From an uncultured Holophagae bacterium (GTDB lineage Bacteria > Acidobacteriota > Thermoanaerobaculia > Thermoanaerobaculales > Sulfomarinibacteraceae), in contig CAVQBD010000002.1 of the NCBI GenBank assembly GCA_963710645.1, positions 138,828 to 202,827 on the forward strand: a stretch of 64,000 nt of DNA, in the 5' to 3' direction. Of this stretch, positions 31,380 through 59,109 are shown piece after piece. Each line of letters begins with the position of its first letter. Position 1 is the stretch's first letter. The notes beneath the pieces were generated by a model that was not told where the DNA came from, did not search any database, and saw only the letters and a program-made list of their open reading frames with translations. Made by a program: the position numbers and the translations under genes.

Positions 31380-31382
31380 GGG

Positions 31383-38553: not shown

Positions 38554-38934
38554 TCAGCGTTTCATTTCTTTGATCGCTCGCAGGATGATTTCGCGCAAAT
38601 CATCAGGCTTGAATGGTTTCGCAATGAAGTCGAAGGCACCGCGTGTGAGAGCCTCGCGCGCGACCTCCACCGTGGCGTAGCCGGTGATGAGGATCACCTT
38701 TGTGTGAGGCGACTTTTCGAGCACGTGCTCGAGCACTTCCATGCCGCTGAAGCCCTCCATCCGCACATCGGTCACGACGATGTCGAATGCCTTTTCCACC
38801 ACGCGCGCAACAGCCAGACGACTTTCCTGGAAGATCTCCACGTCATAGTCGGACTTCTCAAGCGCGGTCTTCAACCGCTTGCCAACAATTTCCTCGTCAT
38901 CGAGCACCAGAATCTGGATCTTCGGTTCGCTCAT
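38554..38934 (-). CDS. Single-domain CheY-like response regulator
   Basis: IQILVLDDEEIV...DIVVTDVRMEGFSG...VILITGY...FIAKPFKPDDL. Confidence 0.9.
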   Translation of the reverse strand: MSEPKIQILVLDDEEIVGKRLKTALEKSDYDVEIFQESRLAVARVVEKAFDIVVTDVRMEGFSGMEVLEHVLEKSPHTKVILITGYATVEVAREALTRGAFDFIAKPFKPDDLREIILRAIKEMKR

Positions 38935-38967
38935 CCGCTGCCTCCCGACCGCCCGGCACCGGGCCGT

Positions 38968-40062: not shown

Positions 40063-40134
40063 TCAACTTCCGGCCAGGGAATTTTGTCACCGCCGTTCGT
40101 CGCCATGGCGGTGGCTGCGCGGCCCAAGTCTTTG

Positions 40135-41664: not shown

Positions 41665-41808
41665 TCTCGAACCTCCCCGAGCGACTCCTTCACATCGAAA
41701 ATCAACAGCCCCTGCATGGCGACCCCATCGCTTTCTGTTCAGCCCAGCGGCTCGATTGTACTCCCGGTCGTGGGATTTCCCGCAACAGACAAATGGTTAG
41801 GCTGTGGC

Positions 41809-44800
41809 CTACCTATTCACCACCTCGATCAACGGACACGGACGTTCGTCGGTGCCCTCGTGGGCTTGTCCGTGAATTGCCTCGATCGCACGGGCGCGGG
41901 TCGGAAAGACCGACTCCCGGCCAATGGTCGCGAGACAGCCGGTCCGTTCGAGAATGTCGAAAATGTCATCCTTGAGACCGCTGATTGAAACCTGGTAACC
42001 GGCGCTTCGAAGATCCAGTACCAGGTCACCAAGGTCCTCCGCCGCGATCTCATCCACGGTCGAAAGACCGTGACACGCGAGCAGGATGTGGCGCGTCTCG
42101 GGGCGCGCGGCGACACGCGCCTTGATCTCGTGCGCGACGAAATCCACGGTCGCAAAATTGAGAGGCCCGTCGATCCGCATGGCTGCGATAAATCGGCAGA
42201 CGGCGAGACCATAGTGGTCGGCGTTGCGGAGCGATCCGTCCGCATGCATCGAAATCTCCACGACCCGAGGCAGGAGCGGCTGCATCGGGCAGTGCTCCTC
42301 AGAGTGTCCACGATGGGCCTCGGCGTACATGCTGGCCACTGCAGAGTCCGCGGTCGGGAAGATATTGTCCAACCCGATTTCGTCGGCAACACCCGACCGT
42401 CCGAGCTCCTCGAAAACGTGATCTCTGAAGCTGCAGAACGACACCGAAAAAGCCGCCTTTCTCAGGCGTTCCACCAACTCGCGAAGCCTTTGTGCGTCTT
42501 CCGAGCCGTGTCGTTCAAGGGTGTGAGCGACAAACAAAATGTGAGTCACCTCAAGCCGATTCTTGACCCACTTGGTGAGCTCCAACTCCAGAGCCGCCGG
42601 GTTGGCGAGAATCAACGGTCCATCGAAGCGAAGGGCCGCGATGTGAGAACACAGTCCAAGGCCGTGCCGTCGAGCTTCGCGCAAACTCCCGTCAGGATGC
42701 AAGGAAAGTTCGGTGACACGGGGCGCCATGGGCTGGAACGGGCAGTTCGGCTCGCTCGATTCGGCGTGCGCCTGCGAGCACAGGGCGGCGATCGCTGCGA
42801 ATTGGGTGGGGAAGCGGTGATTTGAGCCGATGACCTGGTCAGTGTCAATCCGGTCGAGGACCTCCAGGACTTCATCCCGGAAGCCCGAGAACGACACGCC
42901 CAAACCCTGCTCGCGGAGACGGTTGACGACCTGAACGAGCTTCTGCGCCCCGGACGGATCGACCTCCGCAATACCGTGGGCGACGAATATGACCTGTCGC
43001 AGCTCCGATCTCCCCTCCAATTTCAGGAGGATCTCCTGCTCGAGGAAATCCGTGTTGGCATAGGTGAGCGGATCGTCGAAGCGGAGGACTGCCATGTGCC
43101 GGCACAACTGGAGGTCATGGCGTACAGCATCGCGAAGCGAACCGTCGGGATGGACCGAGAGTTCCGCGAGTCGGGGCATCACCGATCGATAGGGGCAACC
43201 CGGCTCGGGATCAGTGTGGGCCGAGGCGTAGATCGCAGCGATGGCCTGGGCCTGAGTGGGGAACTGGTGGTCCCCGCCGAGGACATCGTAGAGGTGGGAC
43301 CGTTTGAGCACGTCGACGACCTGGTCCTTGAGGCCGCAGAAAGAGACGTCGTACTTCGCCTCCCGCAAGTGCTCCACCAGGTGGCGCAACATTTCCTCAC
43401 CCGAGGCGTCGACCTCGTTGATGCCCTCGGCCACGACCAGGACGTGCTTGAGATCCGGCATCTTGGAGACCCGATCGAGCACCTCGTCCTCGAGGTAGGA
43501 GGCGTTGGCGAAGTTCAGCGGGCCGTCGAACCGTATTGCGGCCAGGTACCGGCATTGCTCGAGGCCATGCCTCCTGGCGTCCTTCAAACCGCCCTCCGAA
43601 TGGGGGGCCAATACGGCCACGCTGGGACGCATCGTACGGAAGAGGTACCCGCCAAGCGACAGGGTCACCCCGATCAGGATCCCCCACTCGAGGTGCGGCG
43701 CAAGAATGAGAGTGCACACGAAGGTCACGACCGACACGAAACCGTCGAATGGTTGGGTCCGCCAAGCATGGACAAAACCACTCACGTTGAGCAGGCCGAA
43801 TACGGCCATCATGATGATCGACGCCAGCACCGCCTGTGGCAGGTTGTAGAGCATGGGTGAGAAAAAGAGCAGGACGATCGCGACGATCAACCCGGAGAAG
43901 ACGTTGGACATGCCGGTGCGCGCTCCCGCCTGCAGGTTGACGGCCGAGCGCGAGAACGATCCCGAGACGGCATAGCTCTGACCCATGCAGCCAACGATGT
44001 TTGCCAACCCCTGACCGATCAGCTCCTGGTTCGGGTCGAGCTTCTGCTTTGTCTTGGCGGCCATCGCTTTGGCGATCGAGATCGCTTCCATGAATCCGAG
44101 GATGGAGATGATGATCGCTGCGGCGATGAGCTTGGGTATGACCTGGAAGTCGATGACGGGCGGACTGATTGGCGGGAGGCCGGCGGGGATTGTCCCGACC
44201 ACAGCCCCTCCTCCTGTCATCATCAAATTCTCTTGATCGATGGCGACGTTGCCCACCTTGATCCGCCATGTGCCAGGTTCCACCTCGAGATCCTGGGCCG
44301 ACTCACCCCGCACGATGAATTGGGGCTCACCCTTTGCATCGACGGCGCGCTGGAAGCGGTAGCCTCTCAGCTCGGTTCGAACATCCGACACGTGGTGTTT
44401 GAGTTCCTCGATCCGAATGTCGATCAAGCCTGCCATTTGGTGAAGGGCCAGCGTCCTGCGCTCGAAATCGCCCGCCACAGCCGGACCACCGCCTGACCCA
44501 AACCCCGTCGCCGAGCGCAGCGCGTGGCAACCCATGCACTGAGTGACGAGATCGCTGTTCTGGTCGTCGAGGAGGACGTTCCCGGAGGCCCTCGCTTCCT
44601 CCAAGAGTCGCTCCTCGAGCACGGCGTCGTTGAACTCAGTGATCTGCTCTTTCACTTTTTCGGATTCGATCTGGTTGCCCTGGACGTTCTCGTTCCTTTC
44701 AAATCCGAGCGTTGCGGCAAGCGCGGTGGTTACGACAACTGCCACCAGCACATTCGGGATCCGGGGGTTGAGTCGCCTCAACGTGATCATGATTGCGAAC

Positions 44801-45414
44801 GACAAGATTGCCATCGCGAGCGTTGGAAGGTGGGTGTAGTGGAGGGCGGCCTCGAAGACCCGGTAGATGGTCCCGTAGTGATGTTCCGCCTTGTCTACAT
44901 AGACGCCGAAGATTTTCGACAATTGGGACGTTGCGATGATCAGGGCGGCGGCATTGGTGAAGCCGTTGACCACCGGATGGGAGAGGAAATTGACAATCAG
45001 GCCGAGGCGAAGGATGCCAAGGGCGAGCTGGAAAACGCCCACCATCAACGCCAGCAAAATGGCGTAGGCGATGTACTGCTGGCCGCCTGCAGTGGCGAGT
45101 GGCTCGAGTGCGGCGGCGGTCATCAGCGACACCACCGCAACAGGTCCCGTCGCCAACTGCCGGCTCGAGCCGAAGAGGTTGGCTACGATGGGCGGCAGAA
45201 AGGCCGCATAGAGCCCGTAGTAGGCCGGCAGCCCGGCCAGCTGCGCATACGCCATCGACTGGGGAACGAGAACGAGGGCTACCGTGAGCCCTGCGATGAA
45301 GTCACTTCTGAGAGTCGAGGCGTCATAGCCCTGGAACCATGTGAGAAATGGGAAAAGGCGTCGCAGGATGGTCATATCCCAGATACTCCAAGCTTTCGGA
45401 GTATACGACAGCAC
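41809..45414 (-). CDS. SulP/SLC26-family anion transporter with an inserted soluble loop and four tandem C-terminal STAS domains
   Basis: SulP signature region (LRSDFIAGLTVALVLVPQSMAYAQLAGLP...). There is a roughly 165-aa non-membrane insertion (residues about 239-404) before the VVGTIPAGLPP motif. Four roughly 150-aa STAS-like repeats occupy residues about 600-1201. Confidence 0.85.
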   Translation of the reverse strand: MLSYTPKAWSIWDMTILRRLFPFLTWFQGYDASTLRSDFIAGLTVALVLVPQSMAYAQLAGLPAYYGLYAAFLPPIVANLFGSSRQLATGPVAVVSLMTAAALEPLATAGGQQYIAYAILLALMVGVFQLALGILRLGLIVNFLSHPVVNGFTNAAALIIATSQLSKIFGVYVDKAEHHYGTIYRVFEAALHYTHLPTLAMAILSFAIMITLRRLNPRIPNVLVAVVVTTALAATLGFERNENVQGNQIESEKVKEQITEFNDAVLEERLLEEARASGNVLLDDQNSDLVTQCMGCHALRSATGFGSGGGPAVAGDFERRTLALHQMAGLIDIRIEELKHHVSDVRTELRGYRFQRAVDAKGEPQFIVRGESAQDLEVEPGTWRIKVGNVAIDQENLMMTGGGAVVGTIPAGLPPISPPVIDFQVIPKLIAAAIIISILGFMEAISIAKAMAAKTKQKLDPNQELIGQGLANIVGCMGQSYAVSGSFSRSAVNLQAGARTGMSNVFSGLIVAIVLLFFSPMLYNLPQAVLASIIMMAVFGLLNVSGFVHAWRTQPFDGFVSVVTFVCTLILAPHLEWGILIGVTLSLGGYLFRTMRPSVAVLAPHSEGGLKDARRHGLEQCRYLAAIRFDGPLNFANASYLEDEVLDRVSKMPDLKHVLVVAEGINEVDASGEEMLRHLVEHLREAKYDVSFCGLKDQVVDVLKRSHLYDVLGGDHQFPTQAQAIAAIYASAHTDPEPGCPYRSVMPRLAELSVHPDGSLRDAVRHDLQLCRHMAVLRFDDPLTYANTDFLEQEILLKLEGRSELRQVIFVAHGIAEVDPSGAQKLVQVVNRLREQGLGVSFSGFRDEVLEVLDRIDTDQVIGSNHRFPTQFAAIAALCSQAHAESSEPNCPFQPMAPRVTELSLHPDGSLREARRHGLGLCSHIAALRFDGPLILANPAALELELTKWVKNRLEVTHILFVAHTLERHGSEDAQRLRELVERLRKAAFSVSFCSFRDHVFEELGRSGVADEIGLDNIFPTADSAVASMYAEAHRGHSEEHCPMQPLLPRVVEISMHADGSLRNADHYGLAVCRFIAAMRIDGPLNFATVDFVAHEIKARVAARPETRHILLACHGLSTVDEIAAEDLGDLVLDLRSAGYQVSISGLKDDIFDILERTGCLATIGRESVFPTRARAIEAIHGQAHEGTDERPCPLIEVVNR

Positions 45415-45541: not shown

Positions 45542-46767
45542 GTGGCGATCATTACGATCGACAGTGCGACGTTCTGCCACGGGCCGGAGGTGGCATCTTC
45601 AGTGGCCGACCGTCTGAAACTGGACCGCCTCGAGGACGACGCGGTCTTTGCGGCCGCCGCCGCCGTCGCCGGTATGGATGCAGCCAAGCTGGTCCGTATC
45701 GTCTACGGTCCGGCGCCCATTTTCCCGGTCGGGGTGCGTGACACGGCGAAGGCAGTCGCCGCCCTCCGCGTCGCCTTGATCGAGGTCATCAGCGCGGATC
45801 AGCTGGTGTACCACGGTCTCCTCGGTCGGCTGCTTCCCCAAAAGCTGTCTCATGTGCTGCGAGTGTGCTTGGCAGGCGACACCGATTTTCGAATCGGGGA
45901 GGCGGACAGGCAGGGAGTTCCGCCCGGGAGGCGAAACGCCGCATCAAGGCCGACGACGACGCGCGGGCGGACTGGATCGACCTCGTGGTTGGTATGGGCC
46001 CATGGGACACGAGCATGTACGACATTTTCGTGGCCATGGACAAGACGTCTCTCGAAGGTGCGGTCGAGTTGGTCTGTGATCACGCGACTCGGCCGCTTCT
46101 GGATCTGACTCGAGCGGGCGAACGCGCCCTGGCCGAAGCTCGCCTTTCAGCGGAGGTCAATCTCGAACTCGCCCGCGAGGGCCACGACGTCGACGTGGTG
46201 TGCGACGATTCTCGGGCCACCATTTTGATCAAGAAGGAAAGCGTATTCAGGGACCGGCAGCGGAAGGAGTTCGAGAAAATTGCCCTCGGTGTCGAGGGGG
46301 TGTCTGCCGTCGAGGTCCGGCGTGGACCGCGCTTCAAGGAGCCGGACATATCATTCAAGATCGACCTCGACGTGCCGTCAAAGGTGCTGTTGGTCGATGA
46401 CGAGCAGGAGTTCGTCAACACCCTGTCCGAGCGGCTCGAGACCCGGAGCATGACGCCGGCAATCGCCTACGACGGCGAAGAGGCTCTGGCGATGGTCGCC
46501 GACGATCAGCCGGAGGTGATGGTGCTCGACCTCAAAATGCCGGGCATCGACGGCCTCGAGGTGCTGCGCAGAATGAAGAAGAGCCACCCCGAAACCCAGG
46601 TCATCATCCTCACAGGGCATGGTTCGGCGGCGGAGGAGGAATTGGCCGCCGAACTTGGCGCCTTTGCATACCTGCGCAAGCCGGTGGACATCGAGGAACT
46701 CACGGCGACAATGAGAAAAGCGTATCGTGAGATCGAGGCGCGACGCGAAGGACGCGACGACGACTGA
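45542..46767 (+). pseudogene. Cytidylate-kinase-like / BON-like / receiver-domain protein split by a frame change near 45900 (pseudogene, assembly indel or recoding)
   Basis: ORF 45521..46108 carries the N-terminal half of the kinase-like domain (...LSHVLRVCLAGDTDFRI). The continuation (SAREAKRRIKADDDARADWI...YDIFVAMD..., a BON-like segment, then a full receiver VLLVDDEQ...MVLDLKMPGIDG...ILTGHG...LRKPVD) is in the -1 frame (ORF 45865..46767). Colinearity with the paralog at 40135..41664 spans the junction. Confidence 0.7.
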
Positions 46768-46771
46768 GAAA

Positions 46772-48505
<1,734 letters not shown>

Positions 48506-48510
48506 ATTGA

Positions 48511-48894
48511 ATGAGTCGTCTTCGAGTCTTGTTCGTCGACGATGAAGAGGAGTTCGTATCGGCGGTCGTCGAACGACTCCAACTTCGAGGGATCGAAGCC
48601 ACAGGTGCGATAACTGGTGCAGAGGCTCTCGATCTGATCGACCGGGAAACCTACGACGTCGTCGCGGCCGATGTGAAGATGCCGGGGCTCGGAGGGCTCG
48701 AGATCGTCCGGCGCATCAAGGATCGACATCCCGGGCTGCAGGTGATTCTGCTGAGCGGTCACGGCTCGCGAGATGATGCCGAGGAGGGGCGTCGGCTCGG
48801 TGCCTGCGATTACTTGGAAAAACCCATCGACATCGAGATTCTGATAGAAATCTTGCGCAAGGCTGCCGCGTCGGCAGGGCCGGTGGTCCGGTGA
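48511..48894 (+). CDS. Single-domain CheY-like response regulator
   Basis: RVLFVDDEEEF...DVVAADVKMPGLGG...VILLSGHG...YLEKPIDIEIL. Confidence 0.9.
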   Translation: MSRLRVLFVDDEEEFVSAVVERLQLRGIEATGAITGAEALDLIDRETYDVVAADVKMPGLGGLEIVRRIKDRHPGLQVILLSGHGSRDDAEEGRRLGACDYLEKPIDIEILIEILRKAAASAGPVVR

Positions 48895-49613
48895 CCGACT
48901 CCGATTCCTCTCGAAAACGGGATGAGGGCCTTGCTTTCTTCGGCACGATGATCGCCGGACAATCCCACGAGCTCACCAACGTCCTCAATATCATCAAGGA
49001 GTTGGCCGGCCTGCAACACGATCTTCTGGAGGCAGGAAACACCGGGCGCCCCGTCGATCTTTCGAGGATTCAGGAGGTCGCATGCAGGATCCAAAACCAG
49101 GTCATGCGGGGCGACACGATCATTCGCAACCTCAACCATTTTGCTCACAGCGTCGACCTGCCGACGGCGGTATTCGATCTCAGGGAGGCGATTGAAAGGG
49201 TTGTGTTCTTCGCCGAGCGGTCGGCCCGGCTGGCCCGGGTCGAGTTGAGTCCGGACCTGCCGGAGGAATCGATGGCCCTCGAGAACAACCCGTTCAGCCT
49301 CCAGCAGGCGTTGTTCATTTGCATCGATCTTGCTCTGCAGTCCGCCACTGACGAACGAAAGGTGACCGTGGATTACAGCGTCTGCGAAGACGGGGCGAAG
49401 ATCCGGATCAACTCGGCCGACAGGCTGGCCAACGATGGTCTCGTCGCCGAGAAACTGGGGTTCCTCAGGCTGTTGCTGTCGGACCTTGGCGGGGTCCTCC
49501 TCAGGGGTCCTGGAGAGGAGCCGTACAACGCGATCGTTTTCAAAATCGGGCTGCACCGGGGCGAGCCATCCGGGCGGCTCGGATCGGCCCGAAGCTCAGG
49601 GGAAGAGAATTGA
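48891..49613 (+). CDS. Soluble histidine-kinase-like protein with a DHp/H-box but a degenerate ATPase domain
   Basis: GTGA overlap with the upstream gene. The H-box-like IAGQSHELTNVLNIIKELAG aligns with AGVAHEINNPLAII of the neighbouring kinase. The downstream region has no recognisable N, G1 or G2 boxes. Confidence 0.55.
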   Translation: MTDSDSSRKRDEGLAFFGTMIAGQSHELTNVLNIIKELAGLQHDLLEAGNTGRPVDLSRIQEVACRIQNQVMRGDTIIRNLNHFAHSVDLPTAVFDLREAIERVVFFAERSARLARVELSPDLPEESMALENNPFSLQQALFICIDLALQSATDERKVTVDYSVCEDGAKIRINSADRLANDGLVAEKLGFLRLLLSDLGGVLLRGPGEEPYNAIVFKIGLHRGEPSGRLGSARSSGEEN

Positions 49614-49668
49614 TACAGTGCGGACACCGGAACCGGCGGCCGGTGACGGCGGGTCGGAATGGAGGCGG

Positions 49669-50103
49669 ATGATGCGCGTCGAGAGCGTGTTGTTGGTTGA
49701 TGACGAAGTGGAGTTTGTTCAGACACTTGCAGAACGCATGCAGGCACGGGGACTGGCCGTCGAGTACGTCACCAACGGCCACGATGCCATCGAATCGGCG
49801 AGATCCAAGACCTACGATGCGGTGGTCCTCGATTTGGCCATGCCTGGAATGAACGGTCTCGAGACCCTCAAGATCCTCCTCCGAGATCATCCCGGCCTCC
49901 AGATCATGCTTCTCACCGGGCAGGCCACCGTTGGCGATGCCGTCGAGGCAACAAAGATCGGGGCGGTGGACGTCTTCGAAAAACCCACCGACATCGAGAC
50001 CCTGGTGGAGAAGATCCGCGAAGCCAGGAAAGCGCGACTCGCCCTGGAGGAGCAACACGCCCTCGATGAGATCGACAAGATCATGTCCACCAAGGGTTGG
50101 TGA
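49669..50103 (+). CDS. CheY-like response regulator with a short C-terminal helical tail
   Basis: ATG 49669 or 49672 follows GGAGG. VLLVDDEVEF...AVVLDLAMPGMNG...LLTGQA...VFEKPTDIETL. Confidence 0.85.
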   Translation: MMRVESVLLVDDEVEFVQTLAERMQARGLAVEYVTNGHDAIESARSKTYDAVVLDLAMPGMNGLETLKILLRDHPGLQIMLLTGQATVGDAVEATKIGAVDVFEKPTDIETLVEKIREARKARLALEEQHALDEIDKIMSTKGW

Positions 50104-50218
50104 GATATTCAGGCTGGCTAGCTCATATTGCGCGCGGAAAAGCGGTCCGGGTTTTCTGATTTTCCAAGCAGCATCAGGACGTCCCCTTCGCCGAAACGAG
50201 TATCGGCCGGAGGCGCAT

Positions 50219-52282
50219 TCAGCCTGCCCTCTCGAACCGTTCGAGGTGTTGTTCACTCCCCAACACCAGCATCACATCGCCCTCCTGAAAGACGTAGCCC
50301 GCACTGGGCATTTCGTCGATAAAAGTTTCCCCGTCGCTGCTCTTTCGCTTGATGAGCAGAAGGTTGACACCAAATTTCTGTCGAATGTCGAGCGAACCCA
50401 GACTCTGACCGAAGAAACTGGCGGGGACCGGGACCTCGGCAAGGCTCATGCCCCGAACTCCTGGGAGCGCTCGGGCTGACGGACCATTCCCCATTGTTCC
50501 GGCCATGGTCGAGGCCATATCGCGCTTGAGAATCTCGCCATTGTATGCCTCGATCACATCCTGCGGCCACAGGGTGCCCACGAGCCGTCCGCGATCCACC
50601 ACCGGCGCCATGAACCGATACCGTCCGAACCGCCTCATGACCTCGTCGAGCGGATCGTCGGGACCGAATACAGGGAAGCCGGTTTCCCTCATCATATCCT
50701 CGGCGATGACCAGACCTCGTGCCGATGCCGGATCGGTCATGAGGGGTCTGATGTCATCGATGGTAATCAGACCCAGGAGGTGGTGATTGGCGTCGGTCAC
50801 GAACACCGTATCGCCGGGGCGTTCGACAAAACGAGAAATCACGGGCATCAAATGGTCTTCTCGTCGGACCACGGTGACCTCGGTTCGCATCGCCTCGCGT
50901 GCGTTGAGCTGGCCAAGCACGTTGGCCGAGTATCCGCCCCGAATGTCGACCCCGCGTCGAAGCAGCTTGAGTGTATAGATCGACGCTGTCTGCATCCGTG
51001 TCGCGAGCAGAGTGGCGATGATGCAGCTGATCATCAGGGGAAGAATGATCTTGTAGTCGCCCGTGAGCTCGAAGATCATCACGATGGCGGTGATGGGAGC
51101 GTGGGTTCCCGCCGCGACAACGGCACCCATCCCCACCAGTGCGTAGGCGCCGGGGCTGGCCGACGCGTCGGGCCATAGGGAATGCACGATAGTCCCGACC
51201 GCCCCGCCGGCCATCGCGCCGATGAACAATGAGGGAGCGAAGATGCCGCCGGATCCGCCTGAACCGATGGTCAGGGAGACCGCCACGATCTTTACCAAGA
51301 CCAGGATCAGCAGCAGCTTCCACCCCAGTCCACCACTCAGTGCCTCGTTGATGGCTTCGTAGCCGACTCCAAGAACCTCCGGGAATTGGATCGCGATCAA
51401 TCCGATGAGCGCCCCGCCCATCGCTGGTTTGACGACAGCTGGAAGACTGAGAGCATCGAAGAGGTCTTCTGCGCCGTACAACGCACGAACAAAAACCAGG
51501 GCCACCAACCCGGCGATGATGCCCAACGCACCGTAGGCGAAGAGTTCGAGTGGGCTTGCGAGGCTGTAGGCCGGCACCTCAAATGCCGGGAAATTACCAA
51601 GGAAGTGTCGACTCACCACTGTTGCCGTGACAGATGAAATCACGATGGGAGAAAACTGGGTGACTCCAAAATCGCCGAGGATGATCTCCACTGAGAACAG
51701 GGCCCCGGCCACCGGCGCATTGAATGTGGCCGCGATCCCGGCCGCCGCGCCGCAGCCGACCAGGGTCCGCAGTCGCCGTTCTCCCACGCCCAACCACTGA
51801 CCGAGGGATGATCCGATCGCAGAGCCGATCTGGACGATCGGTCCTTCCCGACCCACTGACCCTCCAGATGCGATACACACGCCCGAGGCGAGGAGCTTGG
51901 CGACAACCACACGCGGACGGATCCGACCGCCCCGAAGGGCCACCGCCTCCATGACTTCCGGCACACCATGCCCCTTGGCTTCGGCAGCATAACGGACGAT
52001 GATCAGCCCGACGATCAGACCACCCACCGCCGGCGACAGCACTTTCCACCAACTCGGCAGACTTCTGAGGTATGCAAGAGTTACGTTGTCCGTTTGCCAG
52101 GCGACGGCCTGGAAGAGGCGTATGGACTCCCGGAACCCAACCGCACCAAGTCCACCGAGCAGCCCGATGACAACGGCCACGAGCACCATGTACGAGTGTT
52201 CGGTGTACTTCAGGAACAGGTGGGCACGCTCCGCCGCCTGGCGAACAAGATTGACAACCGGGATTCGGCTCAGCCAGCCCAT
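50219..52282 (-). CDS. ClC-family chloride channel/antiporter with a CBS pair and a C-terminal TrkA-C (RCK_C) domain
   Basis: GSVGREGPIVQIGS, GSGGSGGIFAPSLFIGA and the CBS region. The terminal segment VPASFFGQSLGSLDIRQKFGVNLLLIKR...GDVMLVLG is TrkA-C-like. Confidence 0.85.
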   Translation of the reverse strand: MGWLSRIPVVNLVRQAAERAHLFLKYTEHSYMVLVAVVIGLLGGLGAVGFRESIRLFQAVAWQTDNVTLAYLRSLPSWWKVLSPAVGGLIVGLIIVRYAAEAKGHGVPEVMEAVALRGGRIRPRVVVAKLLASGVCIASGGSVGREGPIVQIGSAIGSSLGQWLGVGERRLRTLVGCGAAAGIAATFNAPVAGALFSVEIILGDFGVTQFSPIVISSVTATVVSRHFLGNFPAFEVPAYSLASPLELFAYGALGIIAGLVALVFVRALYGAEDLFDALSLPAVVKPAMGGALIGLIAIQFPEVLGVGYEAINEALSGGLGWKLLLILVLVKIVAVSLTIGSGGSGGIFAPSLFIGAMAGGAVGTIVHSLWPDASASPGAYALVGMGAVVAAGTHAPITAIVMIFELTGDYKIILPLMISCIIATLLATRMQTASIYTLKLLRRGVDIRGGYSANVLGQLNAREAMRTEVTVVRREDHLMPVISRFVERPGDTVFVTDANHHLLGLITIDDIRPLMTDPASARGLVIAEDMMRETGFPVFGPDDPLDEVMRRFGRYRFMAPVVDRGRLVGTLWPQDVIEAYNGEILKRDMASTMAGTMGNGPSARALPGVRGMSLAEVPVPASFFGQSLGSLDIRQKFGVNLLLIKRKSSDGETFIDEMPSAGYVFQEGDVMLVLGSEQHLERFERAG

Positions 52283-52304
52283 GGGGCAAGTCTACGCCCT
52301 TCAG

Positions 52305-52748
52305 TCACCGGTTGCGGCGCCACTCGCGCCACGCACGCCAAGCATGGCGCGAGGAGAGGAGCAGCGCCACTCCAACTGCGATATAGACCGCGCCGACGAT
52401 GCCACGCGTGACCGCGCCACGCAGCAGGCGGCCGGCAGCGATCATCACAATGACCAACGCCCAGGTGCTCAGCGAGAGGAAGCCACCGAGACATCGGCCG
52501 TCGCCGCGGGCACGGATTCGTTCGACGACCTTCCGCGCCGCACGATCGAGCACCAGCTGTGACTTGATCGCACCGACGACGACCGCGCCGGCCGCGATCC
52601 ACGGCGCGGCCGCGGGTGCCGCCCCCCACAGCCACCGAACTCCGAAGCCCGCCAGGGCCGCCCCCACCACCGCCCACATGAGCCACGCCAACATCAGGTG
52701 GGTCGGTACCGACGCCGCCGGTTTGTGGTTTTCTGCCCAATGGGTCAA
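52305..52748 (-). CDS. Hypothetical small membrane protein (about 4 TM)
   Basis: 147-aa ORF located 22 nt upstream of the ClC gene on the same strand, with hydrophobic helices. No family was recognised. Confidence 0.5.
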   Translation of the reverse strand: MTHWAENHKPAASVPTHLMLAWLMWAVVGAALAGFGVRWLWGAAPAAAPWIAAGAVVVGAIKSQLVLDRAARKVVERIRARGDGRCLGGFLSLSTWALVIVMIAAGRLLRGAVTRGIVGAVYIAVGVALLLSSRHAWRAWREWRRNR

Positions 52749-53019
52749 TGGAGTCCTCCGCGTGGGGGGTGCAGCCGGTCCCGTGAGAGAGAACCCGTTC
52801 GGATGATTATGACCCGATCACGCTCAATGGGGTGACCATGCGTGGAAATTTCATAGAGAGATTCGGTCGCTCGGCGCGACAGGATTCCTGGCTCTGTTGG
52901 ATTCTTCGGAGTTGGGACTGTCGGATTGGCCCGAGTGCCGATCTGGCATTTGATCCGACAGCGGAGTCCACAGCGAAGCCTTGTTTTGGGTACGCCGCTT
53001 GCATTTCAGGTGGGCGAAT

Positions 53020-53937
53020 ATGAATGTCCAGCAGGTGATTTCCACCGTGACAGATCCAGTGGCTGCAGGGCCGGGGACCGGGTCGGTCGTCGGATCGGTC
53101 AATGAGGGACACGATCCGCCACGGCGAGGTGTGCCATTGAGCCTGCTCCTCGGAGTGACCATCTCGGCGCTGGTTGTTCTTCTGCTCGGTGCGCTCACGA
53201 CCCTTCAGCTGCGACGTGAGGAACGGAGGGAGATCACTGCCCGAGAGGCCTTATTGGCCCAGTCGCTCGTGCCGCTGGCCCAGGAAGTCGAGCAGGCGGG
53301 CAGCCTCGGTGAGATCGAGCAGGTCCTATCCTCTTGCCGGGTCGGCGAGATCGCTCTCGGCCGATCCGGCTACAACGTGGTGTTTCGCGATGACCGAGGC
53401 CGCGTGTTGGTCTCGGCTGATGCATCGGGCGGGGTTTCGCCGCCCGACGATTCGCTTCGGGCGAGTGTGGCGGTGCGTTCGAATGTGCTTTCCGCGGGAG
53501 GCGGAACACTCGCAGCGTGGCAGGACACCTCGAGTCTCGCCAAAGAGATGATGTTACGTCGAAAGGTGGCCTGGGTCGATATCGCGATCACCGGATTGGC
53601 CGTCATAGTCGTCATCCAGTTGGCGGTATATCTCCTCGTCACGCGGCCCATGAACCGGTTGCTGACAGCCATCGACAGATTCGAACAGGGGTATCCCGCA
53701 AAGTTCCGAAATGGCGCCGTCGCGCGCGAACTGCGCTGGTTGGGGTGGCGGTTCCACCGGATGAACACCAGCCTGACCGACAACGCCCGTTGGTTGGTGG
53801 CTGCGCACCGGCGAGCAGTGGAAACCTCGAGATCTCGGCGACAACAAGAAACTGGATCCTCTGCCCTTCGACCCTCTCGACCTGGATCGCGCCGAGGTGA
53901 CGGCTGGAAACGAGATCATGCGGCGCTTCTTGAGTGA
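53020..53937 (+). CDS. Membrane protein with two TM segments and a HAMP-like linker
   Basis: ATG 53020. TM1 LSLLLGVTISALVVLLLGAL, then a roughly 140-aa outer region, then TM2 VDIAITGLAVIVVIQLAVYLLV, then a HAMP-like segment TRPMNRLLTAIDRFEQG. Codon-position GC indicates that the last roughly 35 codons of the listed frame are probably not the true frame (see findings). Confidence 0.6.
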   Translation: MNVQQVISTVTDPVAAGPGTGSVVGSVNEGHDPPRRGVPLSLLLGVTISALVVLLLGALTTLQLRREERREITAREALLAQSLVPLAQEVEQAGSLGEIEQVLSSCRVGEIALGRSGYNVVFRDDRGRVLVSADASGGVSPPDDSLRASVAVRSNVLSAGGGTLAAWQDTSSLAKEMMLRRKVAWVDIAITGLAVIVVIQLAVYLLVTRPMNRLLTAIDRFEQGYPAKFRNGAVARELRWLGWRFHRMNTSLTDNARWLVAAHRRAVETSRSRRQQETGSSALRPSRPGSRRGDGWKRDHAALLE

Positions 53938-54635
53938 CCGATGTGCGTGGCTCGAAGGTTGTAGTCCGGAAAATCCAGAGGCTCGGGACGACCGCCCTGG
54001 AGGTATGGACAAACGATGTCGTCGATGCTGAGCGATTTGGTGAGATGGCCCTCCGCGCGCGGCTCGAGAACGCCGCCCTGAAGGTCCTCGATCCGGAGGC
54101 CTTCGATGGGGTGAGCAGAGGACTGGAGTCGATGGTCGCTGCGCAGGCCACGTGGTGTGCTGCGACCGAAGCGGCCATCGTCTCGGCACTTTCCGCCGAT
54201 GGCGTGCAGTATGTGGCGATCCAGCGCAGGGCCAAGCACGTCGCGGGGGTGTGGCGAAAAATGAAAGAGAAACACCTTGCCCTTGAAGACGTGCAGGATT
54301 TGTTCGCCTTTCGGATCATCGTTCCAGGGCAGGATGAATGCTATCTGGCTCTTGCCACCGTCCATCGTTTGTTCGACCCGGAGCCGTTTCGATTCAAGGA
54401 CTACATAGCAAATCCCAAGGCGAACGGCTACCAGAGCCTCCACACCAGTGTCCGTGATCGGGGCGGTTTTGCATTCGAGATCCAAATCCGAACCGTCGAC
54501 ATGCACCGTGCGGCTGAGGAGGGTGCTGCCGCCCATTGGCGTTACCGAGCCGGCAAATCCGTGCGCAACAGGGCATCGGCGAGGTCTGCGGGTCTGGGTG
54601 GTCTTGGTGCTCTGATCAGGCGTCGGCGTGGGTGA
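53934..54635 (+). CDS. RelA/SpoT-domain small alarmone synthetase-like protein
   Basis: Synthetase-domain motifs RAKHVAGVWRKMKEK, DLFAFRIIV, YIANPKANGYQSLHTSV, FEIQIRTVDMH and AAHWRYR. GTG 53934 overlaps the upstream TGA. Confidence 0.8.
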   Translation: MTDVRGSKVVVRKIQRLGTTALEVWTNDVVDAERFGEMALRARLENAALKVLDPEAFDGVSRGLESMVAAQATWCAATEAAIVSALSADGVQYVAIQRRAKHVAGVWRKMKEKHLALEDVQDLFAFRIIVPGQDECYLALATVHRLFDPEPFRFKDYIANPKANGYQSLHTSVRDRGGFAFEIQIRTVDMHRAAEEGAAAHWRYRAGKSVRNRASARSAGLGGLGALIRRRRG

Positions 54636-56049
54636 CGGGCGTCAGGGACGGGGTGGCTGGTAGGGTTACGGTGAAGGTCGTGCCCTTGCCCTGCTCCGTG
54701 GTGAAGGTGACGTCCCCGCCATGTTCTTCGGCGACCTTCTGAACCACCAGAAGACCGATGCCGGTGCCCTCGCTGCCCTTGGTCGAGAAAAAGTCCTCGA
54801 AGACCCGGCTGTTCATCTCGTCGGGAATCCCGGCGCCATCGTCCTCCACCTCGAGGATCATGGAGCCCTTGATGTCGGTGGTGCAGCGAAGGGTGATGGT
54901 GTGGTGTTCCTTCGCGTCTGACGGATCGAAACGACAGGCGTCGATGGCATTGGCGACCAGGTTGGTGAGCATGTTGTGGAGTCCGCCGGGATCGAAGGTG
55001 CCATAGACCGGCGGGTCACAGAGTTCGGTTTCCAGGGTGATGCCCTCTTCGGCCATGCGGTCGGCAAAGAGATCGCGGACCTCCATCAGAATGGTGTTCG
55101 GGCAGACCCCGTCCTTGAAATCCGGGGTCCGATCCTTGGAACAATAGAGCAGATCCATGACGATCCTCGAGACCCGGTGGACGTTTCGTTCGACCATTTC
55201 CCACCCTTCAGCAATGGTCTCGCGATCATCGGTTTCGAGCCCTGTGTTGACGACGAAAATGCCGCCCTCGAGCCCCATCAAAATATTCTTGATTCGATGT
55301 GCCATACCGGCTACGGCACGTCCCATGAGGGCCAACTGGCGTTGCAGCGCCTTGACCTCGGTGACGTCGGTGAACACCTCCATGACGGCGCTGATCTCGC
55401 CATCGTCGTCCACGATGGGCATTGTGTGCACCACGGCATTGACCCGTCTGTGATCCCGCGTCACGAGAATCTCTTCGTCGGAGTGGATCAGGCCGTCGGC
55501 AAAGGTCAGGTCCACCACGCAGTTTGGACACTTGCTCGTGCGTTTCTTGCACACCTCGTAACAGAAAGAACGGTTGGTCGCCCCGAACTCCTCGCGGTAC
55601 ATGGCGTTGGCCTCGAGGATTCGATGGTCCCGGTCGATGACGCAGATAAAGCATGGGACGGAGGTGAAGAGGCGTTCGAAACCACGTCGAGTTTGATTGA
55701 GTTCACGTTTGAGATCGTTGAAGGGTGGCGCGTCGACGACTCTCGGTCGCCGGGTGAAGACCCACACGCCGAGGCTTGCCAGGCAGAAGAAGAGGGTCGC
55801 CGCGATGACGATGGGAGACAGGAATCGAACTCCACCCGCCACCGCAACGCACAGGATCGAGATGACCGAAAAATACACCGCGACGATGCGCCGCCGCTGA
55901 ATGATCGGGTCGTTAACCTTCCTGGTGACCTTCGGGCCTGCCGGCGGGACGATGTCGTTGGGTGGAGTTCTGGTGTGGTGATGGGCCGGGGCACCATTGC
56001 GCTGATCTTGAGAGGGTGTTGTCCCGTCAGGTATGTCCATCGACGCCAC
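54616..56049 (-). CDS. Membrane sensor histidine kinase with a Cys-rich PAS domain
   Basis: Two TM segments, a PAS with SFCYEVCKKRTSKCPNCVV, H-box AGMAHRIKNIL, N-box LTNLVANAIDA, and G-boxes DDGAGIP and GTGIGLLVV. Confidence 0.85.
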   Translation of the reverse strand: MASMDIPDGTTPSQDQRNGAPAHHHTRTPPNDIVPPAGPKVTRKVNDPIIQRRRIVAVYFSVISILCVAVAGGVRFLSPIVIAATLFFCLASLGVWVFTRRPRVVDAPPFNDLKRELNQTRRGFERLFTSVPCFICVIDRDHRILEANAMYREEFGATNRSFCYEVCKKRTSKCPNCVVDLTFADGLIHSDEEILVTRDHRRVNAVVHTMPIVDDDGEISAVMEVFTDVTEVKALQRQLALMGRAVAGMAHRIKNILMGLEGGIFVVNTGLETDDRETIAEGWEMVERNVHRVSRIVMDLLYCSKDRTPDFKDGVCPNTILMEVRDLFADRMAEEGITLETELCDPPVYGTFDPGGLHNMLTNLVANAIDACRFDPSDAKEHHTITLRCTTDIKGSMILEVEDDGAGIPDEMNSRVFEDFFSTKGSEGTGIGLLVVQKVAEEHGGDVTFTTEQGKGTTFTVTLPATPSLTPVTHADA

Positions 56050-56361
56050 TCCCAGCGCCTCTTTCCGGTTGATCGGCGTCAGCCCGTTTGGAGGCCTGCT
56101 GCGCTAGTATGGCACACTCGTTTTCGCGGGGCGTCCGGCGGCTCGTGCTGCGGGTACAACCTCGGCCATGGGCCGAGCGTCAATCAGGTCTTGAGAAAAA
56201 TAGCTGAACAGGCCGATCGAATACCAGCTCGAAGGCTGATCAGAGGTCCATGGCCTGCCGTTGCGGTTGAACTACGACACGGCGCGACATACCTTGGATT
56301 GCGGGAGCCGAGTTGGCGGCAGCGCAGAGCCGGGAGGTTGGGTTCGGCTGAGGAAGATTCG

Positions 56362-57720
56362 ATGGATAACAGTGATTTCGATCCGGCACAGATCATTCTT
56401 GACAGCGTCGCCGACGGGGTCTTCACCGTCGATCGCCAGTGGCGCATCAGCTCGTTCAACCGGGCAGCGGAAGAGATTACAGGCGTGCCCCGGGAAGAAG
56501 CTCTGGGACAACGCTGCTGCGATGTGTTTCGGGCCAGCATCTGTGAATCCGGTTGCGCCCTCAGACACACCCTCGAAACCGGGGAAAATGTCGTCAACAA
56601 AAAGGTTTTCATTGTCGATACCGACGGTACCAAACTCCCGGTGAGCGTTTCGACGGCGATCCTCAGGGACGCCGATGGGCAACCCAAGGGTGGTGTCGAG
56701 ACCTTTCGCGATCTCAGCCACGTCGAGCAGCTGCGCAAGGAACTCGAGGGCCGTTTCTCGCTCGGCGACATCATTGGCCGCAGTCGTCCCATGAGGGACC
56801 TTTTCGAAGTGCTTCCGGCGATCGCGGCCAGCGAGAGCACCGTCGTCGTCCACGGCGCCAGCGGGACAGGCAAGGAGCTCTTCGCCCGTGCGATCCACCA
56901 GCTGTCACCGAGACGGGACAAACGGTTTGTTGCCATCAACTGTGGTGCTCTTCCGGACACTCTGCTTGAAAACGAACTCTTCGGCCACGTGGCCGGCGCC
57001 TTCACCGACGCCCGTCGTGACAGGCCGGGTCGTTTCGCCCATGCGGAAGGGGGCACCATCTTCTTGGATGAGATCGGGGATATTTCCCAGGCGATGCAGG
57101 TTCGTCTGCTGCGGGTTCTCCAGGAGCACGTCTACGAGCCTCTCGGCTCGGTGGAGCCGGTGACAGCCGACGTCCGGGTCATCGTCGCCACTCACCGCGA
57201 TCTCGCAAGCCTCGTTGAGGATGGAGTTTTCAGGGAAGACCTCTACTATCGCATCAACGTGATGAAGCTGGAGCTGCCGGCATTGAAAGAGCGCCGGGAG
57301 GACATTCCGCTGCTGGTGGATCATTTTGTCCAGCGATTCAACCGGCTTCAGGACAAGGACGTCGTCGGAGTGTCGGACGAGGTTCTCAGCCTGCTCATGA
57401 CATATTCGTTCCCAGGCAACGCCCGGGAGTTGGAAAACGTCATCGAGCACGCCTTCGTGCTCTGCAATGAAGGCTGCATCGAACTCAGACACCTGCCACC
57501 TGAAATCAGTCAGGGATCCGAAGTTCCTCCGGTGGAATCCCGGGGGGGAATGACTCTCCGTGAGATGGAAGCCCTGCAAATATCGCTTGCACTCCACCGC
57601 CATGGCGGAAACCGGAAGGCGGCGGCCGATGAGCTTGGGATCCACCCGAGCACCCTCTTCCGGAAACTCAAGGATCTGGAGATCGAGCCGCCGGAGCGCG
57701 ACGGTCGGAATAGTCAGTAG
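56362..57720 (+). CDS. Sigma-54-dependent transcriptional activator with an N-terminal Cys-rich PAS domain
   Basis: ATG 56362 is residue 463 of listed ORF 54976..57720; the upstream 462 codons are the antisense shadow of the kinase gene. PAS with GQRCCDVFRASICESGCAL, Walker A GASGTGKE, GAFTDA loop and a C-terminal Fis-type HTH. Confidence 0.9.
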   Translation: MDNSDFDPAQIILDSVADGVFTVDRQWRISSFNRAAEEITGVPREEALGQRCCDVFRASICESGCALRHTLETGENVVNKKVFIVDTDGTKLPVSVSTAILRDADGQPKGGVETFRDLSHVEQLRKELEGRFSLGDIIGRSRPMRDLFEVLPAIAASESTVVVHGASGTGKELFARAIHQLSPRRDKRFVAINCGALPDTLLENELFGHVAGAFTDARRDRPGRFAHAEGGTIFLDEIGDISQAMQVRLLRVLQEHVYEPLGSVEPVTADVRVIVATHRDLASLVEDGVFREDLYYRINVMKLELPALKERREDIPLLVDHFVQRFNRLQDKDVVGVSDEVLSLLMTYSFPGNARELENVIEHAFVLCNEGCIELRHLPPEISQGSEVPPVESRGGMTLREMEALQISLALHRHGGNRKAAADELGIHPSTLFRKLKDLEIEPPERDGRNSQ

Positions 57721-57834: not shown

Positions 57835-57889
57835 TTCCCCCTCCGGTGGCGTCCTGTAATAGGTTGACACTCGAGAAGGGGGTGGGCCT

Positions 57890-58291
57890 ATGGCGGGAAG
57901 GACGATGCGATACAGTGAGGCATTCAAGCAGCAGGTAGTGGACGAGCTCGAGGCGGGGCGATTTGGGAGTCCACATGAGGCATCACAGGCCTACGGTGTT
58001 GATTCGGGGTCGGTGAAGCGTTGGGCTAGACAGTACGGCAAGGGGCACTTGCTGCGGAAGGTGGTACGAGTGGAGAAGCAAGACGAGCCTGGGGAGATCA
58101 AGCGTTTGAAGGAACGGGTGCGAGGCTTGGAAGCTGCGTTGGCGGATTCGGTGATGGACCAGGCGTTGGATCAGGCGTTTTTCGAGATTCTGTGCGAGCG
58201 GATGGGCATCGACGCGAGAGAGTTTAAAAAAAAGCACGCTGGTCAGGCGTCCACCGGGCGGGCAAGAAACTCCAAGGACGACGCGGAGTAA
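57890..58291 (+). CDS. IS3-family transposase OrfA (HTH)
   Basis: MRYSEAFKQQVVDELEAG...VKRWARQY plus a leucine-zipper-like region, typical of IS3 OrfA. Confidence 0.85.
   Translation: MAGRTMRYSEAFKQQVVDELEAGRFGSPHEASQAYGVDSGSVKRWARQYGKGHLLRKVVRVEKQDEPGEIKRLKERVRGLEAALADSVMDQALDQAFFEILCERMGIDAREFKKKHAGQASTGRARNSKDDAE
58228..58234 (+). other. Programmed -1 ribosomal frameshift heptamer A AAA AAG in the IS3 element
   Basis: TTTAAAAAAAAG at 58223-58234. In the orfA frame the codons are AAA AAA AAG. The -1 frame downstream reads ARWSGVHRAGKKLQGRRGVSIERLCCKVGMTRQNYY with no stop codon before orfB. Confidence 0.7.
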
Positions 58292-58302
58292 GCATCGAGA
58301 GG

Positions 58303-59109
58303 TTGTGCTGCAAGGTGGGCATGACCCGGCAGAACTACTACAAGCAGAGGCGGCGGCGAAGACGGAGAGAAGTCGACGAGAGTCTGATCATCGCTCTGGT
58401 CAGGCGGGAGCGACAGCAGCAGCCGCGGCTTGGTTGTAGGAAGCTCCATCGGCATTTGCGTCAGCAGTTTCGAGACGCCGGTATCCAGGTCGGTAGAGAC
58501 CGGATGTTTGAGGTTCTTCGTCATCACGGGATGCTGGTCAGACCGTTGCCGAAGAAACCCCGCACTACGTTTTCGGGGCACTCTTTGCCGGTGTATAGGA
58601 ATCTCATCTCTGAGCTTGAGGCCACGGCTCCAAACCAGATCTGGGTCAGCGACGTGACCTACATCCGGACGTGGGGGGGGTTTGAGTACCTCACTCTGAT
58701 CATGGACCTGCACTCCCACAAGATCGTCGGCTATCACTGTGGAGAAAGCCTCGACACCAAGACTTCCATGAAAGCGTTGGATCAGGCGATTGCGGATCTG
58801 CCAGACGACAGGTATCCAATTCACCATTCAGATCGAGGAAGCCAGTACTGTAGCCACAAGTATGTCGAACGCCTGAATGGTCGCTACTTGCCGGTGAGCA
58901 TGACCGAGTTGAATCACTGTGCCGAAAACTCAACTGCAGAGAGACTCAACGGCATCCTCAAACAGGAGTATGGCCTCGGAAGAACTTTCCTCAGCCGGCA
59001 GCAGGTACGACGCGCTGTCGATGAAGCCGTCTGGCTCTACAACCACCGCCGACCCCACATGACCCTCGATTACCAATACCCTGCCAAGGTCCATGAACTG
59101 GCCGCCTGA
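58303..59109 (+). CDS. IS3-family transposase OrfB (rve/DDE integrase core)
   Basis: IWVSDVTYI (D), HHSDRGSQY (D) and AENSTAERLNGILKQE (E). The -1 frame is open from the slippery site at 58228 through to this ORF. Confidence 0.9.
   Translation: MCCKVGMTRQNYYKQRRRRRRREVDESLIIALVRRERQQQPRLGCRKLHRHLRQQFRDAGIQVGRDRMFEVLRHHGMLVRPLPKKPRTTFSGHSLPVYRNLISELEATAPNQIWVSDVTYIRTWGGFEYLTLIMDLHSHKIVGYHCGESLDTKTSMKALDQAIADLPDDRYPIHHSDRGSQYCSHKYVERLNGRYLPVSMTELNHCAENSTAERLNGILKQEYGLGRTFLSRQQVRRAVDEAVWLYNHRRPHMTLDYQYPAKVHELAA

Follow-up and report, generated by a model that had tools for sequence, protein, structure and literature searches.

A predicted sensor–HAMP–RelA/SpoT synthetase gene in an uncultured Holophagae bacterium, very probably split by two single-nucleotide insertions

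Organisation of the locus

The DNA studied here is a stretch of 64,000 nucleotides (the window) from an uncultured Holophagae bacterium of the acidobacterial family Sulfomarinibacteraceae (GenBank assembly GCA_963710645.1, contig CAVQBD010000002.1, forward-strand positions 138,828 to 202,827). Our subject is the locus at positions 53020–54635 of the window, which an initial annotation described as a membrane protein of HAMP type coupled to a small alarmone synthetase, with two successive +1 frame changes where the two meet. The list of open reading frames (ORFs) of the window holds both ORFs, and the stop codon of the first and the start codon of the second share a 4-nucleotide GTGA overlap, as had been described:

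53020–53937, + strand: ORF1, from ATG 53020 to a TGA ending at 53937, 305 residues
53934–54635, + strand: ORF2, from GTG 53934 to a TGA ending at 54635, 233 residues

The composition of the three codon positions changes within ORF1. Over 53020–53829 its frame has guanine-plus-cytosine (G+C) fractions of 0.68, 0.49 and 0.73 at the first, second and third positions, which is the normal pattern of this genome. At about 53830 the codon position of low G+C moves from coordinates that leave a remainder of 2 on division by three to those that leave 0, and the computed frame plot follows this second-position signal from the ORF1 frame into the +1 frame and later into the ORF2 frame. Over 53839–53934 the ORF1 frame gives 0.78, 0.66 and 0.34, the third-position value being the one reported initially. 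The +1 frame gives 0.68, 0.44 and 0.65 over 53839–53989; this is the same pattern as the 83, 34 and 76% first claimed for 53830–53934, but weaker. Scored as alternative minus own frame, 53839–53989 reaches +0.58, a value attained by none of 555 control windows of 150 nucleotides lying within ten well-supported genes of the same 64 kb (maximum +0.18, mean −0.47). The frame switch is real and far outside chance. Gene finding from G+C alone was confounded by antisense shadow ORFs and was dropped.

Intact orthologs align across three frames

By tblastn, 12 intact orthologs matched the window in three collinear segments. If each frame is named by the remainder that its codon starts leave on division by three, these segments occupy phase 1 as far as about 53838, phase 2 between about 53843 and 53989, and phase 0 from 53979–53994 onward. 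In the middle segment the high-scoring segment pairs of 11 of the 12 orthologs use phase 2, the +1 frame. The locus divides as follows:

53020–53838, + strand: segment 1, phase 1; N-terminal tail, first transmembrane helix (TM1), extracytoplasmic domain, second transmembrane helix (TM2), putative HAMP and start of the linker, ending ...AVETSRSR
53839–53854, + strand: junction 1; 16 nucleotides (CGACAACAAGAAACTG) against five codons in the closest intact orthologs, a surplus of one nucleotide
53855–53989, + strand: segment 2, phase 2; linker and first helix, DPLPFDPLDLDRAEVTAGNEIMRRFLSDRCAWLEGCSPENPEARD
53990–53993, + strand: junction 2; GACC, four nucleotides against a single codon between ...ARD/E and ALxxW, a surplus of one nucleotide and the second +1 change
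53994–54635, + strand: segment 3, phase 0; pre-synthetase helical region, predicted (p)ppGpp synthetase domain and basic C-terminal tail, with TGA at 54633–54635
53839–53937, + strand: out-of-frame tail of ORF1, not native protein; RQQETGSSALRPSRPGSRRGDGWKRDHAALLE and stop, with reversed codon-position G+C
53934–53993, + strand: out-of-frame head of ORF2; VTDVRGSKVVVRKIQRLGTT, from the three-frame translation

The coding signal leaves the ORF1 frame near 53839, within 53839–53854, and the first of the two suspected changes, placed initially at about 53828, is thereby borne out. We compared this junction codon by codon with two intact orthologs, L081 and L082, and alignment and frame plot concur; the variability of the linker precludes naming the inserted base. 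The +1 frame then stays in use through 53989 (...RRFLSDRCAWLEGCSPENPEARD), and both tblastn and the multiple alignment show the ORF2 frame only from 53994 (ALEVWTNDVV...). At this second junction the window reads GCT CGG GAC, GACC, GCC CTG GAG GTA TGG, where L081 has GCG CGG GAG GCT GCC CTC CAA ATC TGG. The second change had been put at about 53933, some 57 nucleotides too early: homology places it at 53990–53993, and the earlier position arose because the G+C of just 20 codons, 53934–53993 (0.60, 0.45 and 0.75 in the ORF2 frame), by chance favours the ORF2 frame. Relative to L081 and L082, the surplus is exactly one nucleotide per junction.

Across both junctions the family consensus runs ...LLVAAHRRAxExSKSR, five residues, DPxxFDPLDLDR...RRYLxDRCALLE...DPxARD-x-ALEIW..., and the window spells it as ...WLVAAHRRAVETSRSR in phase 1, KKLDPLPFDPLDLDRAEVTAGNEIMRRFLSDRCAWLEGCSPENPEARD in phase 2 and ALEVWTNDVVDAERFGEM... 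in phase 0. The conserved motifs DPxxFDPLxLD and RRYLxDRCAxLE fall in segment 2, and about 50 codons between the homologous parts of ORF1 and ORF2 are thus conserved in a frame that belongs to neither ORF. Past about 53838 the ORF1 frame, whose annotated C-terminus contains RQQETGSSALRPSRPGSRRG..., has no homology to the orthologs in tblastn or in the multiple alignment; the orthologs use the three frames collinearly and conserve there neither the listed ORF1 frame nor its stop. The ORF2 frame before 53979–53994 is likewise matched by no ortholog in tblastn. GTG 53934 is the first possible start after an in-frame TGA at 53931–53933, ORF2 has no evident ribosome-binding site, and ORF2 as delimited is absent from a collection of 15 billion proteins.

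We conclude that 53020–54635 is very probably one gene and not two, a sensor–HAMP–synthetase fusion split by two single-nucleotide insertions. As written, the DNA would encode a sensor and HAMP protein with a 33-residue nonsense tail and, at best, also an unregulated synthetase fragment. The annotation calls for correction: the C-terminal 33 codons of ORF1 and the N-terminal 20 codons of ORF2 are out-of-frame artefacts, and this copy should be flagged as frameshifted.

Intact members of the family

Among 5.8 billion proteins, more than 100 orthologs are single polypeptides of 500–560 residues, 55–62% identical by BLASTP and covering 90–96% of the reconstruction, to which the intact ones align end to end. 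These single chains, together with the one extra nucleotide at each junction, uphold the initial suggestion of a single sensor–synthetase fusion broken by indels over the alternative offered with it, a mis-called C-terminus of the sensor. The only 100% match to the joined-frame query in that collection was the annotated 305-residue ORF1 itself (P0052; NCBI/ENA; from a contig of 660 kb), and the protein searches found no relative above about 64% identity. The orthologs are mostly unnamed metagenome proteins; the few named ones belong to Acidobacteriota (Thermoanaerobaculia/Thermoanaerobaculales, Holophagae). Intact members have about 520 residues and consist, in a single chain, of a short cytoplasmic tail, TM1, sensor, TM2, HAMP, linker, helical region and synthetase.

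A search with the sensor and HAMP part alone returned 88 matches among 1.84 billion representatives, 66 of them at E ≤ 1e-10, and a complete synthetase domain is carried by 49 of these 66. These 49 are fusions of a putative HAMP with RelA/SpoT, of the kind for which a database search had been proposed. The sensor–HAMP module occurs almost only with a synthetase output, and the same architecture is shared by essentially all of the 66 clusters. Of the Pfam families matched, RelA_SpoT alone occurs in every one of the 30 aligned members. When genome contigs were scanned with the family alignment, generic RelA/SpoT motifs brought up almost only ordinary long RelA/SpoT homologue (RSH) genes, with locus L001 as the sole true ortholog. 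The architecture is already machine-annotated in JGI records and is uncharacterised rather than unseen.

Membrane, sensor and HAMP regions

The repaired protein was modelled with AlphaFold as a monomer, with a predicted local distance difference test (pLDDT) score of 81.6. Its N-terminal half contains the following features:

53131–53202, + strand: TM1, residues 38–61, VPLSLLLGVTISALVVLLLGALTT; by Kyte–Doolittle hydropathy, with an AlphaFold helix from residue 40
53203–53565, + strand: extracytoplasmic alpha/beta sensor domain, possibly PDC/PAS-like, residues 62–182, about 120 residues
53566–53640, + strand: TM2, residues 183–207, VAWVDIAITGLAVIVVIQLAVYLLV; by hydropathy, within a continuous model helix 171–222
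53641–53805, + strand: putative divergent HAMP, residues 208–262, with RP...G...ARELrWL..RF..M...L; directly after TM2, RPMNRLLTAIDRFEQGYPAKFRNGAVARELRWLGWRFHRMNTSL

Kyte–Doolittle windows of 19 residues scoring at least 1.6 pick out exactly two transmembrane segments, residues 38–61 and 183–207, in keeping with the two-pass protein first described. The sensor domain between them is modelled at a pLDDT of 87.3 in the order helix–helix–four strands–helix, which fits a PDC/PAS-like (Cache-type) fold. Foldseek matches to it are weak (best E = 6.6e-3, TM-scores 0.37–0.54): PhoR-type PAS, CusS, LapD, WalK and dCache sensor domains appear, interleaved with ribosomal proteins. One ortholog gives a weak dCache_1 match.

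We treat the segment after TM2 as a divergent HAMP, on the strength of its sequence profile and model. The family profile of this segment, A2, matches almost only HAMP domains in the PDB, with NarQ best (E = 4e-4; profile positions 4–54 on NarQ 178–229), followed by the HAMP domains of Af1503, Tsr and EnvZ chimeras; the alignment spans the whole domain and keeps the conserved P, G and E in register. In the model, helix 171–222 is followed by a connector (223–231) and a second helix (232–273). The HAMP-type label given initially finds a match at the level of this profile and falls short of the Pfam threshold. Beyond lies a variable linker of about 25 residues, which contains junction 1; the model has low confidence at residues ~274–295, and the linker is probably disordered.

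The synthetase half

Downstream of the linker the model has five helices and then an alpha/beta synthetase fold. The RelA_SpoT domain (PF04607) matches ORF2 residues 99–207, at 54228–54554, with E = 5.7e-38 and 130 bits (cut-off 27) over profile positions 2–111 of 113, in agreement with the synthetase domain first assigned to ORF2. In phmmer searches the catalytic half matches Mycobacterium tuberculosis Rel 175–352 and Escherichia coli RelA 155–370 at E ~1e-34 and about 33% identity. All catalytic motifs are present, and RxKHxxxxWRKM, DxxAFRIIV, RFKDYIAxPKxNGYQSLHT, EIQIRT and AAHWRYR are conserved with Rel/RelA. A basic RFKD motif is typical of Rel/SpoT-type enzymes, and the family conserves it. 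Foldseek aligns the region with structures of the N-terminal region of Rel, RelA and SpoT over 205–219 columns at 3–4 Å, with E-values down to 5e-15. The TIGR00691 model is hit with E = 6.9e-56 and a score of 189.9 against a cut-off of 499.2, only its positions 145–328 of 687 being covered.

Similarity to the small alarmone synthetases (SAS) RelP and RelQ is weaker (E ~5e-6; YjbM model 4.8e-7). The term small alarmone synthetase, used for ORF2 at the outset, fits in that a hydrolase is missing, but the protein is much closer to long Rel, RelA and SpoT. Pfam found no HD hydrolase, TGS or ACT match, either for the window protein or for the 30 members. Judged by its sequence, the family resembles a long Rel in which an N-terminal transmembrane sensor–HAMP module has taken the place of the hydrolase and the regulatory C-terminus. 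The product is predicted to be (p)ppGpp rather than (p)ppApp, and the activity to be synthesis rather than tRNA pyrophosphorylation.

Integrity of the gene and of the window

In a 30-member alignment the repaired protein keeps 39 of 39 invariant columns. It deviates at 5 of 114 highly conserved columns, in each case conservatively; intact members deviate at 8.0 ± 5.9. In all pairs compared, the RSH gene diverges 3–4 times faster than the ClC channel gene next to it, so no lineage-specific acceleration is apparent, and a relative-rate approach to relaxed selection was dropped when it gave no lineage-specific signal against ClC. Of the marks of a pseudogene, a frame disrupted relative to intact orthologs is present, and relaxed constraint is not seen in the sequence.

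A same-strand scan for frame competition over 37 likely genes of the window flagged only ordinary gene boundaries (near 21.0, 41.6 and 48.8 kb), and Pfam scans of about 20 tightly abutting window ORFs found complete domains with no truncation or frame break. The sole exception to clean frames in the window is an IS3-type orfA/orfB pair at 57863–59109 on the + strand, in which a 142-residue orfA-like ORF (57863–58291) overlaps, in another frame, an ORF with an rve integrase core (58228–59109). A programmed −1 frameshift between orfA and orfB is the usual arrangement in the IS3 family. The clean frames elsewhere in the 64 kb indicate that the assembly is not generally indel-prone. The absence of decay and the clean surroundings, taken together, point to consensus errors or very recent mutations.

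GATC occurs four times in 53830–53920, along with CTCGAG, AGATCT and GGATCC. We dropped a methylation-motif error context, as GATC is common throughout the window and its local enrichment is only about twofold. In the 64 kb as a whole GATC is over-represented, with 589 occurrences (9.2 per kb) against an estimate of about 3.5 per kb from base composition.

Further split loci

Three further loci are split in the same HAMP-to-synthetase linker: L084 at 4440–4660 (ENA ERZ25039603 contig_84377), L085 at 1900–2130 (the Logan assembly of SRR10211371) and L086 at 3760–4010 (JGI 3300040801). L084 passes from phase 1 through 2 to 0 as the window does, at other codons: a C has been added behind ...DQEIF and one further base behind ...EEYR. 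A third shift of this gene is close to the N-terminus, and the adjoining ClC and DUF2270 genes of L084 are intact. In L085 the frame shifts once, by −1; in L086 a duplicated TG shifts it by +2. The frame of the synthetase relative to that of the sensor is identical at all four split loci (net +2, equivalent to −1), an agreement with a chance probability of about 1 in 8. Break site and indel type differ among them, and they share no slippery motif. Four of about eight C-terminally truncated representatives break in the 30-residue linker, in a set that is small and biased towards fragments. Two other incomplete representatives are a contig-end fragment (L088) and a sequence that loses homology in the HAMP (L087); with these in the truncated set, we make no claim that the linker is a frameshift hotspot and leave the recurrence unexplained.

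Origin of the frame changes

Consensus or assembly error has, in our estimate, about an even chance of being the origin of the insertions, real and very recent inactivating mutation a little under even, and anything else a small residue. That residue includes a true two-gene operon, in which a sensor–HAMP protein (ORF1) and a separate small alarmone synthetase (ORF2), coupled through GTGA, would act in trans. The stop/start overlap does exist, and L084–L086 likewise present a split sensor ORF followed by a RelA_SpoT ORF. We nevertheless hold an operon to be very unlikely, since it is contradicted by the middle-frame homology, the fifty conserved codons that neither ORF reads. Neither the ORF1 tail nor the ORF2 head has homologs, and codon-position G+C is reversed in both; ORF2 as delimited is missing from the protein collection, breaks at the other split loci fall at different codons and result from different indels, and 49 of 66 family representatives are fused. 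The overlap itself, pointed out initially, is not evidence of a coupled operon: it is an out-of-frame reading of TTC TTG AGT GAC CGA, the codons for a conserved F-L-S-D-R. The residue also includes programmed recoding, in which two +1 ribosomal frameshifts (or an equivalent) would yield the full-length protein and regulate the synthetase. That both changes are +1, that the net frame is the same at four of four split loci and that a rare AGA codon stands just upstream of junction 1 would suit it. Yet more than 100 orthologs are read without any frameshift, the split loci differ in where and by which indel they break and have no slippery motif in common, and the net-frame agreement could arise by chance about once in eight. 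Neither junction has a stop codon or a Shine–Dalgarno-like stimulator, the RNA fold of 53810–54030 is no more stable than shuffled sequences (z = +0.59), and there is no Rfam match. With single-ORF orthologs, differing breaks and no structural or Rfam signal, the locus does not resemble a conserved frameshift site of the prfB, dnaX or IS3 type, and recoding is extremely improbable.

If the extra bases came from consensus calling, for example where co-assembled strains differ by in-frame indels in the linker, the organism would have an intact 1.6-kb gene. The repaired protein without decay and the intact codon-position signal of the middle segment speak for such an artefact, as does the position of both breaks in or beside a stretch that varies in length, is modelled with low confidence and is the one poorly conserved part of the protein. 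Other, related contigs belonging to the same class of source bear 'contig_N' names typical of long-read assemblers, from which a long-read origin is inferred, and one of them, L084, has three frame breaks in this same gene. On the other side, no other gene is broken in the 64-kb window, which implies a low general error rate, neither junction is a homopolymer, and breaks in the same linker also occur in the Logan contig L085, which we take as short-read, and in the JGI contig L086. The clean flanking genes, making local errors rare, and the lack of a homopolymer at either site count in turn for a very recent pseudogene with two genuine insertions, possibly following the loss of DUF2270 or costly, unbalanced alarmone synthesis. 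In L081 (6688–7338), L082 (7177–7827) and L084 (2236–2940) the gene directly upstream, on the same strand, encodes a DUF2270 membrane protein; the window, whose corresponding stretch is 52283–53019, lacks this gene, and tblastn found no remnant of it. L084, L085 and L086 come from independent datasets and are also frame-broken, one by a TG duplication of replication-slippage type, so that broken alleles seem recurrent. A pseudogene is disfavoured by the lack of excess substitutions at conserved positions and of lineage-specific acceleration against ClC, and a second neutral indel 150 nucleotides from the first, before any other damage, is improbable.

Several points weigh against our overall reading of the locus as a receptor-type fusion gene interrupted by two insertions. 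Pfam gives no HAMP match in the window protein and reaches two of 30 family members only at E = 0.02, below the cut-off. The fold assignment of the sensor domain is weak, its PDC/PAS-like identity being suggestive, not proven, and product, dimer and signal are all inferred. The insertions are those of an assembled sequence and may not exist in the organism, and the long-read origin is a guess from the record names of related contigs. Two errors within 150 nucleotides, neither in a homopolymer, are odd for random sequencing error in a clean 64 kb; two neutral indels without other decay are equally odd for a pseudogene.

Genomic context

The gene context of the family is only loosely conserved. 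In the close clade, ClC channel and DUF2270 genes lie upstream. Two-component genes are nearby. Between the window and L081 the ClC proteins are 84–85% identical, against only 58% for the synthetase proteins. Window positions 46727–52282 hold, in order, a sensor kinase, a response regulator, a small protein and ClC (minus strand); the corresponding order in L081 (1003–6346) is a dCache kinase, a response regulator, a 228-residue protein, a second response regulator and ClC. The place of DUF2270 is taken in the window by an unannotated 147-residue hydrophobic ORF on the opposite strand (52305–52748) with no Pfam match.

On the 3′ side, a PAS–HisKA–HATPase histidine kinase gene (54616–56049, minus strand) runs towards the synthetase gene and shares 20 nucleotides with its 3′ end. 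Beyond it, at about 56300–57720 on the + strand, lies an apparent sigma-54-type activator, judged from its translation and listed within an artificially long 914-residue ORF (54976–57720) that runs antisense through the kinase gene. About 8–16 kb upstream of the synthetase gene, window 36984–45414 (minus strand) is syntenic with L082 9596–17512 (minus strand), the block immediately downstream of the L082 ortholog. The block encodes a HAMP histidine kinase, a response regulator, a TauE/SafE exporter, a 509-residue protein and a 1201-residue protein; in L082 the counterparts of the last two are Cytidylate_kin2-like and a sulfate transporter with STAS domains.

Further away, redox genes are dense at 14209–21379 and 25417–32903 (+ strand). 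They encode heterodisulfide-reductase-like CCG/Fer4 proteins, a molybdopterin oxidoreductase with a NuoG-like N-terminus, an 839-residue NuoE-like/NuoF-like protein, a nitrate-reductase-gamma-like membrane protein and a multihaem cytochrome c3. This gene set suggests anaerobic sulfur or formate/hydrogen metabolism.

Discussion

Receptor-controlled (p)ppGpp synthesis would fit the domain anatomy of the family, by analogy with other HAMP-coupled receptors. A signal at the extracytoplasmic domain, whether ligand or stress, could shift TM2 and a presumably dimeric HAMP bundle, and this change, passed on by the linker and helical region, would turn the synthetase on or off. A cue from the envelope or the environment might thus be converted directly into (p)ppGpp synthesis, with degradation left to a separate hydrolase encoded elsewhere. 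A bolder version adds to this receptor-type synthetase, relayed through HAMP, a linker that is hit again and again in wild populations by natural, frame-breaking indels, which would silence the enzyme or uncouple it; we regard that combination as unlikely.

Each part of this architecture has known relatives. The synthetase and the helical segment preceding it are homologous to those of long RSH enzymes (M. tuberculosis Rel, 5xnx; Streptococcus equisimilis Rel, 1vj7; E. coli RelA, 5iqr). Unlike these, the family has no HD hydrolase, TGS, helical, ZFD or ACT regions and carries an N-terminal two-helix transmembrane sensor and HAMP instead of control by ribosomes or partner proteins. With the SAS enzymes RelP, RelQ and RelV it shares a monofunctional design, synthetase without hydrolase. 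It differs from them in being neither small nor single-domain (about 520 residues, with four further modules) and in its membrane anchor and sensor input, and its sequence and fold resemble theirs much less than those of long RSH enzymes. The input logic of TM1, periplasmic sensor, TM2, HAMP, helical connector and catalytic output is that of HAMP-GGDEF diguanylate cyclases, HAMP adenylate cyclases and the kinases NarQ, EnvZ and PhoQ, whereas the predicted output here is an RSH pyrophosphokinase. Cyclases and kinases need dimeric catalytic centres, and long-RSH synthetase domains act as monomers; the gating mechanism may therefore differ. As for the break, frameshifted genes in metagenome-assembled genomes and ordinary pseudogenes are likewise cut by single-base indels and annotated as two pieces. 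The locus differs from both in its two shifts of the same direction 150 nucleotides apart, the lack of other decay and the parallel linker breaks in three datasets.

The RSH classifications of 2011 and 2020 distinguish roughly 30 SAS subfamilies (Atkinson 2011; Jimmy 2020) and mention no transmembrane or HAMP-linked subfamily in their main text. Reviews of RSH regulation name ribosomes, partner proteins and small molecules as controls and state that SAS enzymes have no sensory domains; like the two classifications, they describe no enzyme connected to a transmembrane sensor. A full-text literature search that paired HAMP with alarmone or ppGpp synthetase, or with PF04607, returned nothing relevant. 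In the literature searched, the combination of this known catalytic domain with this known relay is undescribed.

The window's own copy is broken, and the break itself is an ordinary matter of annotation or assembly, which tempers interest in the locus; attention belongs to the intact family and to the linker frameshifts, whose recurrence is unexplained. Classical control of (p)ppGpp synthesis is intracellular, through ribosomes, partner proteins and metabolites. The family described here would place alarmone synthesis under the direct control of envelope or environmental signals, as is familiar for cyclic di-GMP and cyclic AMP, and would offer a compact system for asking how a HAMP relay gates a monomeric RSH catalytic domain and what these little-studied soil and sediment bacteria sense.

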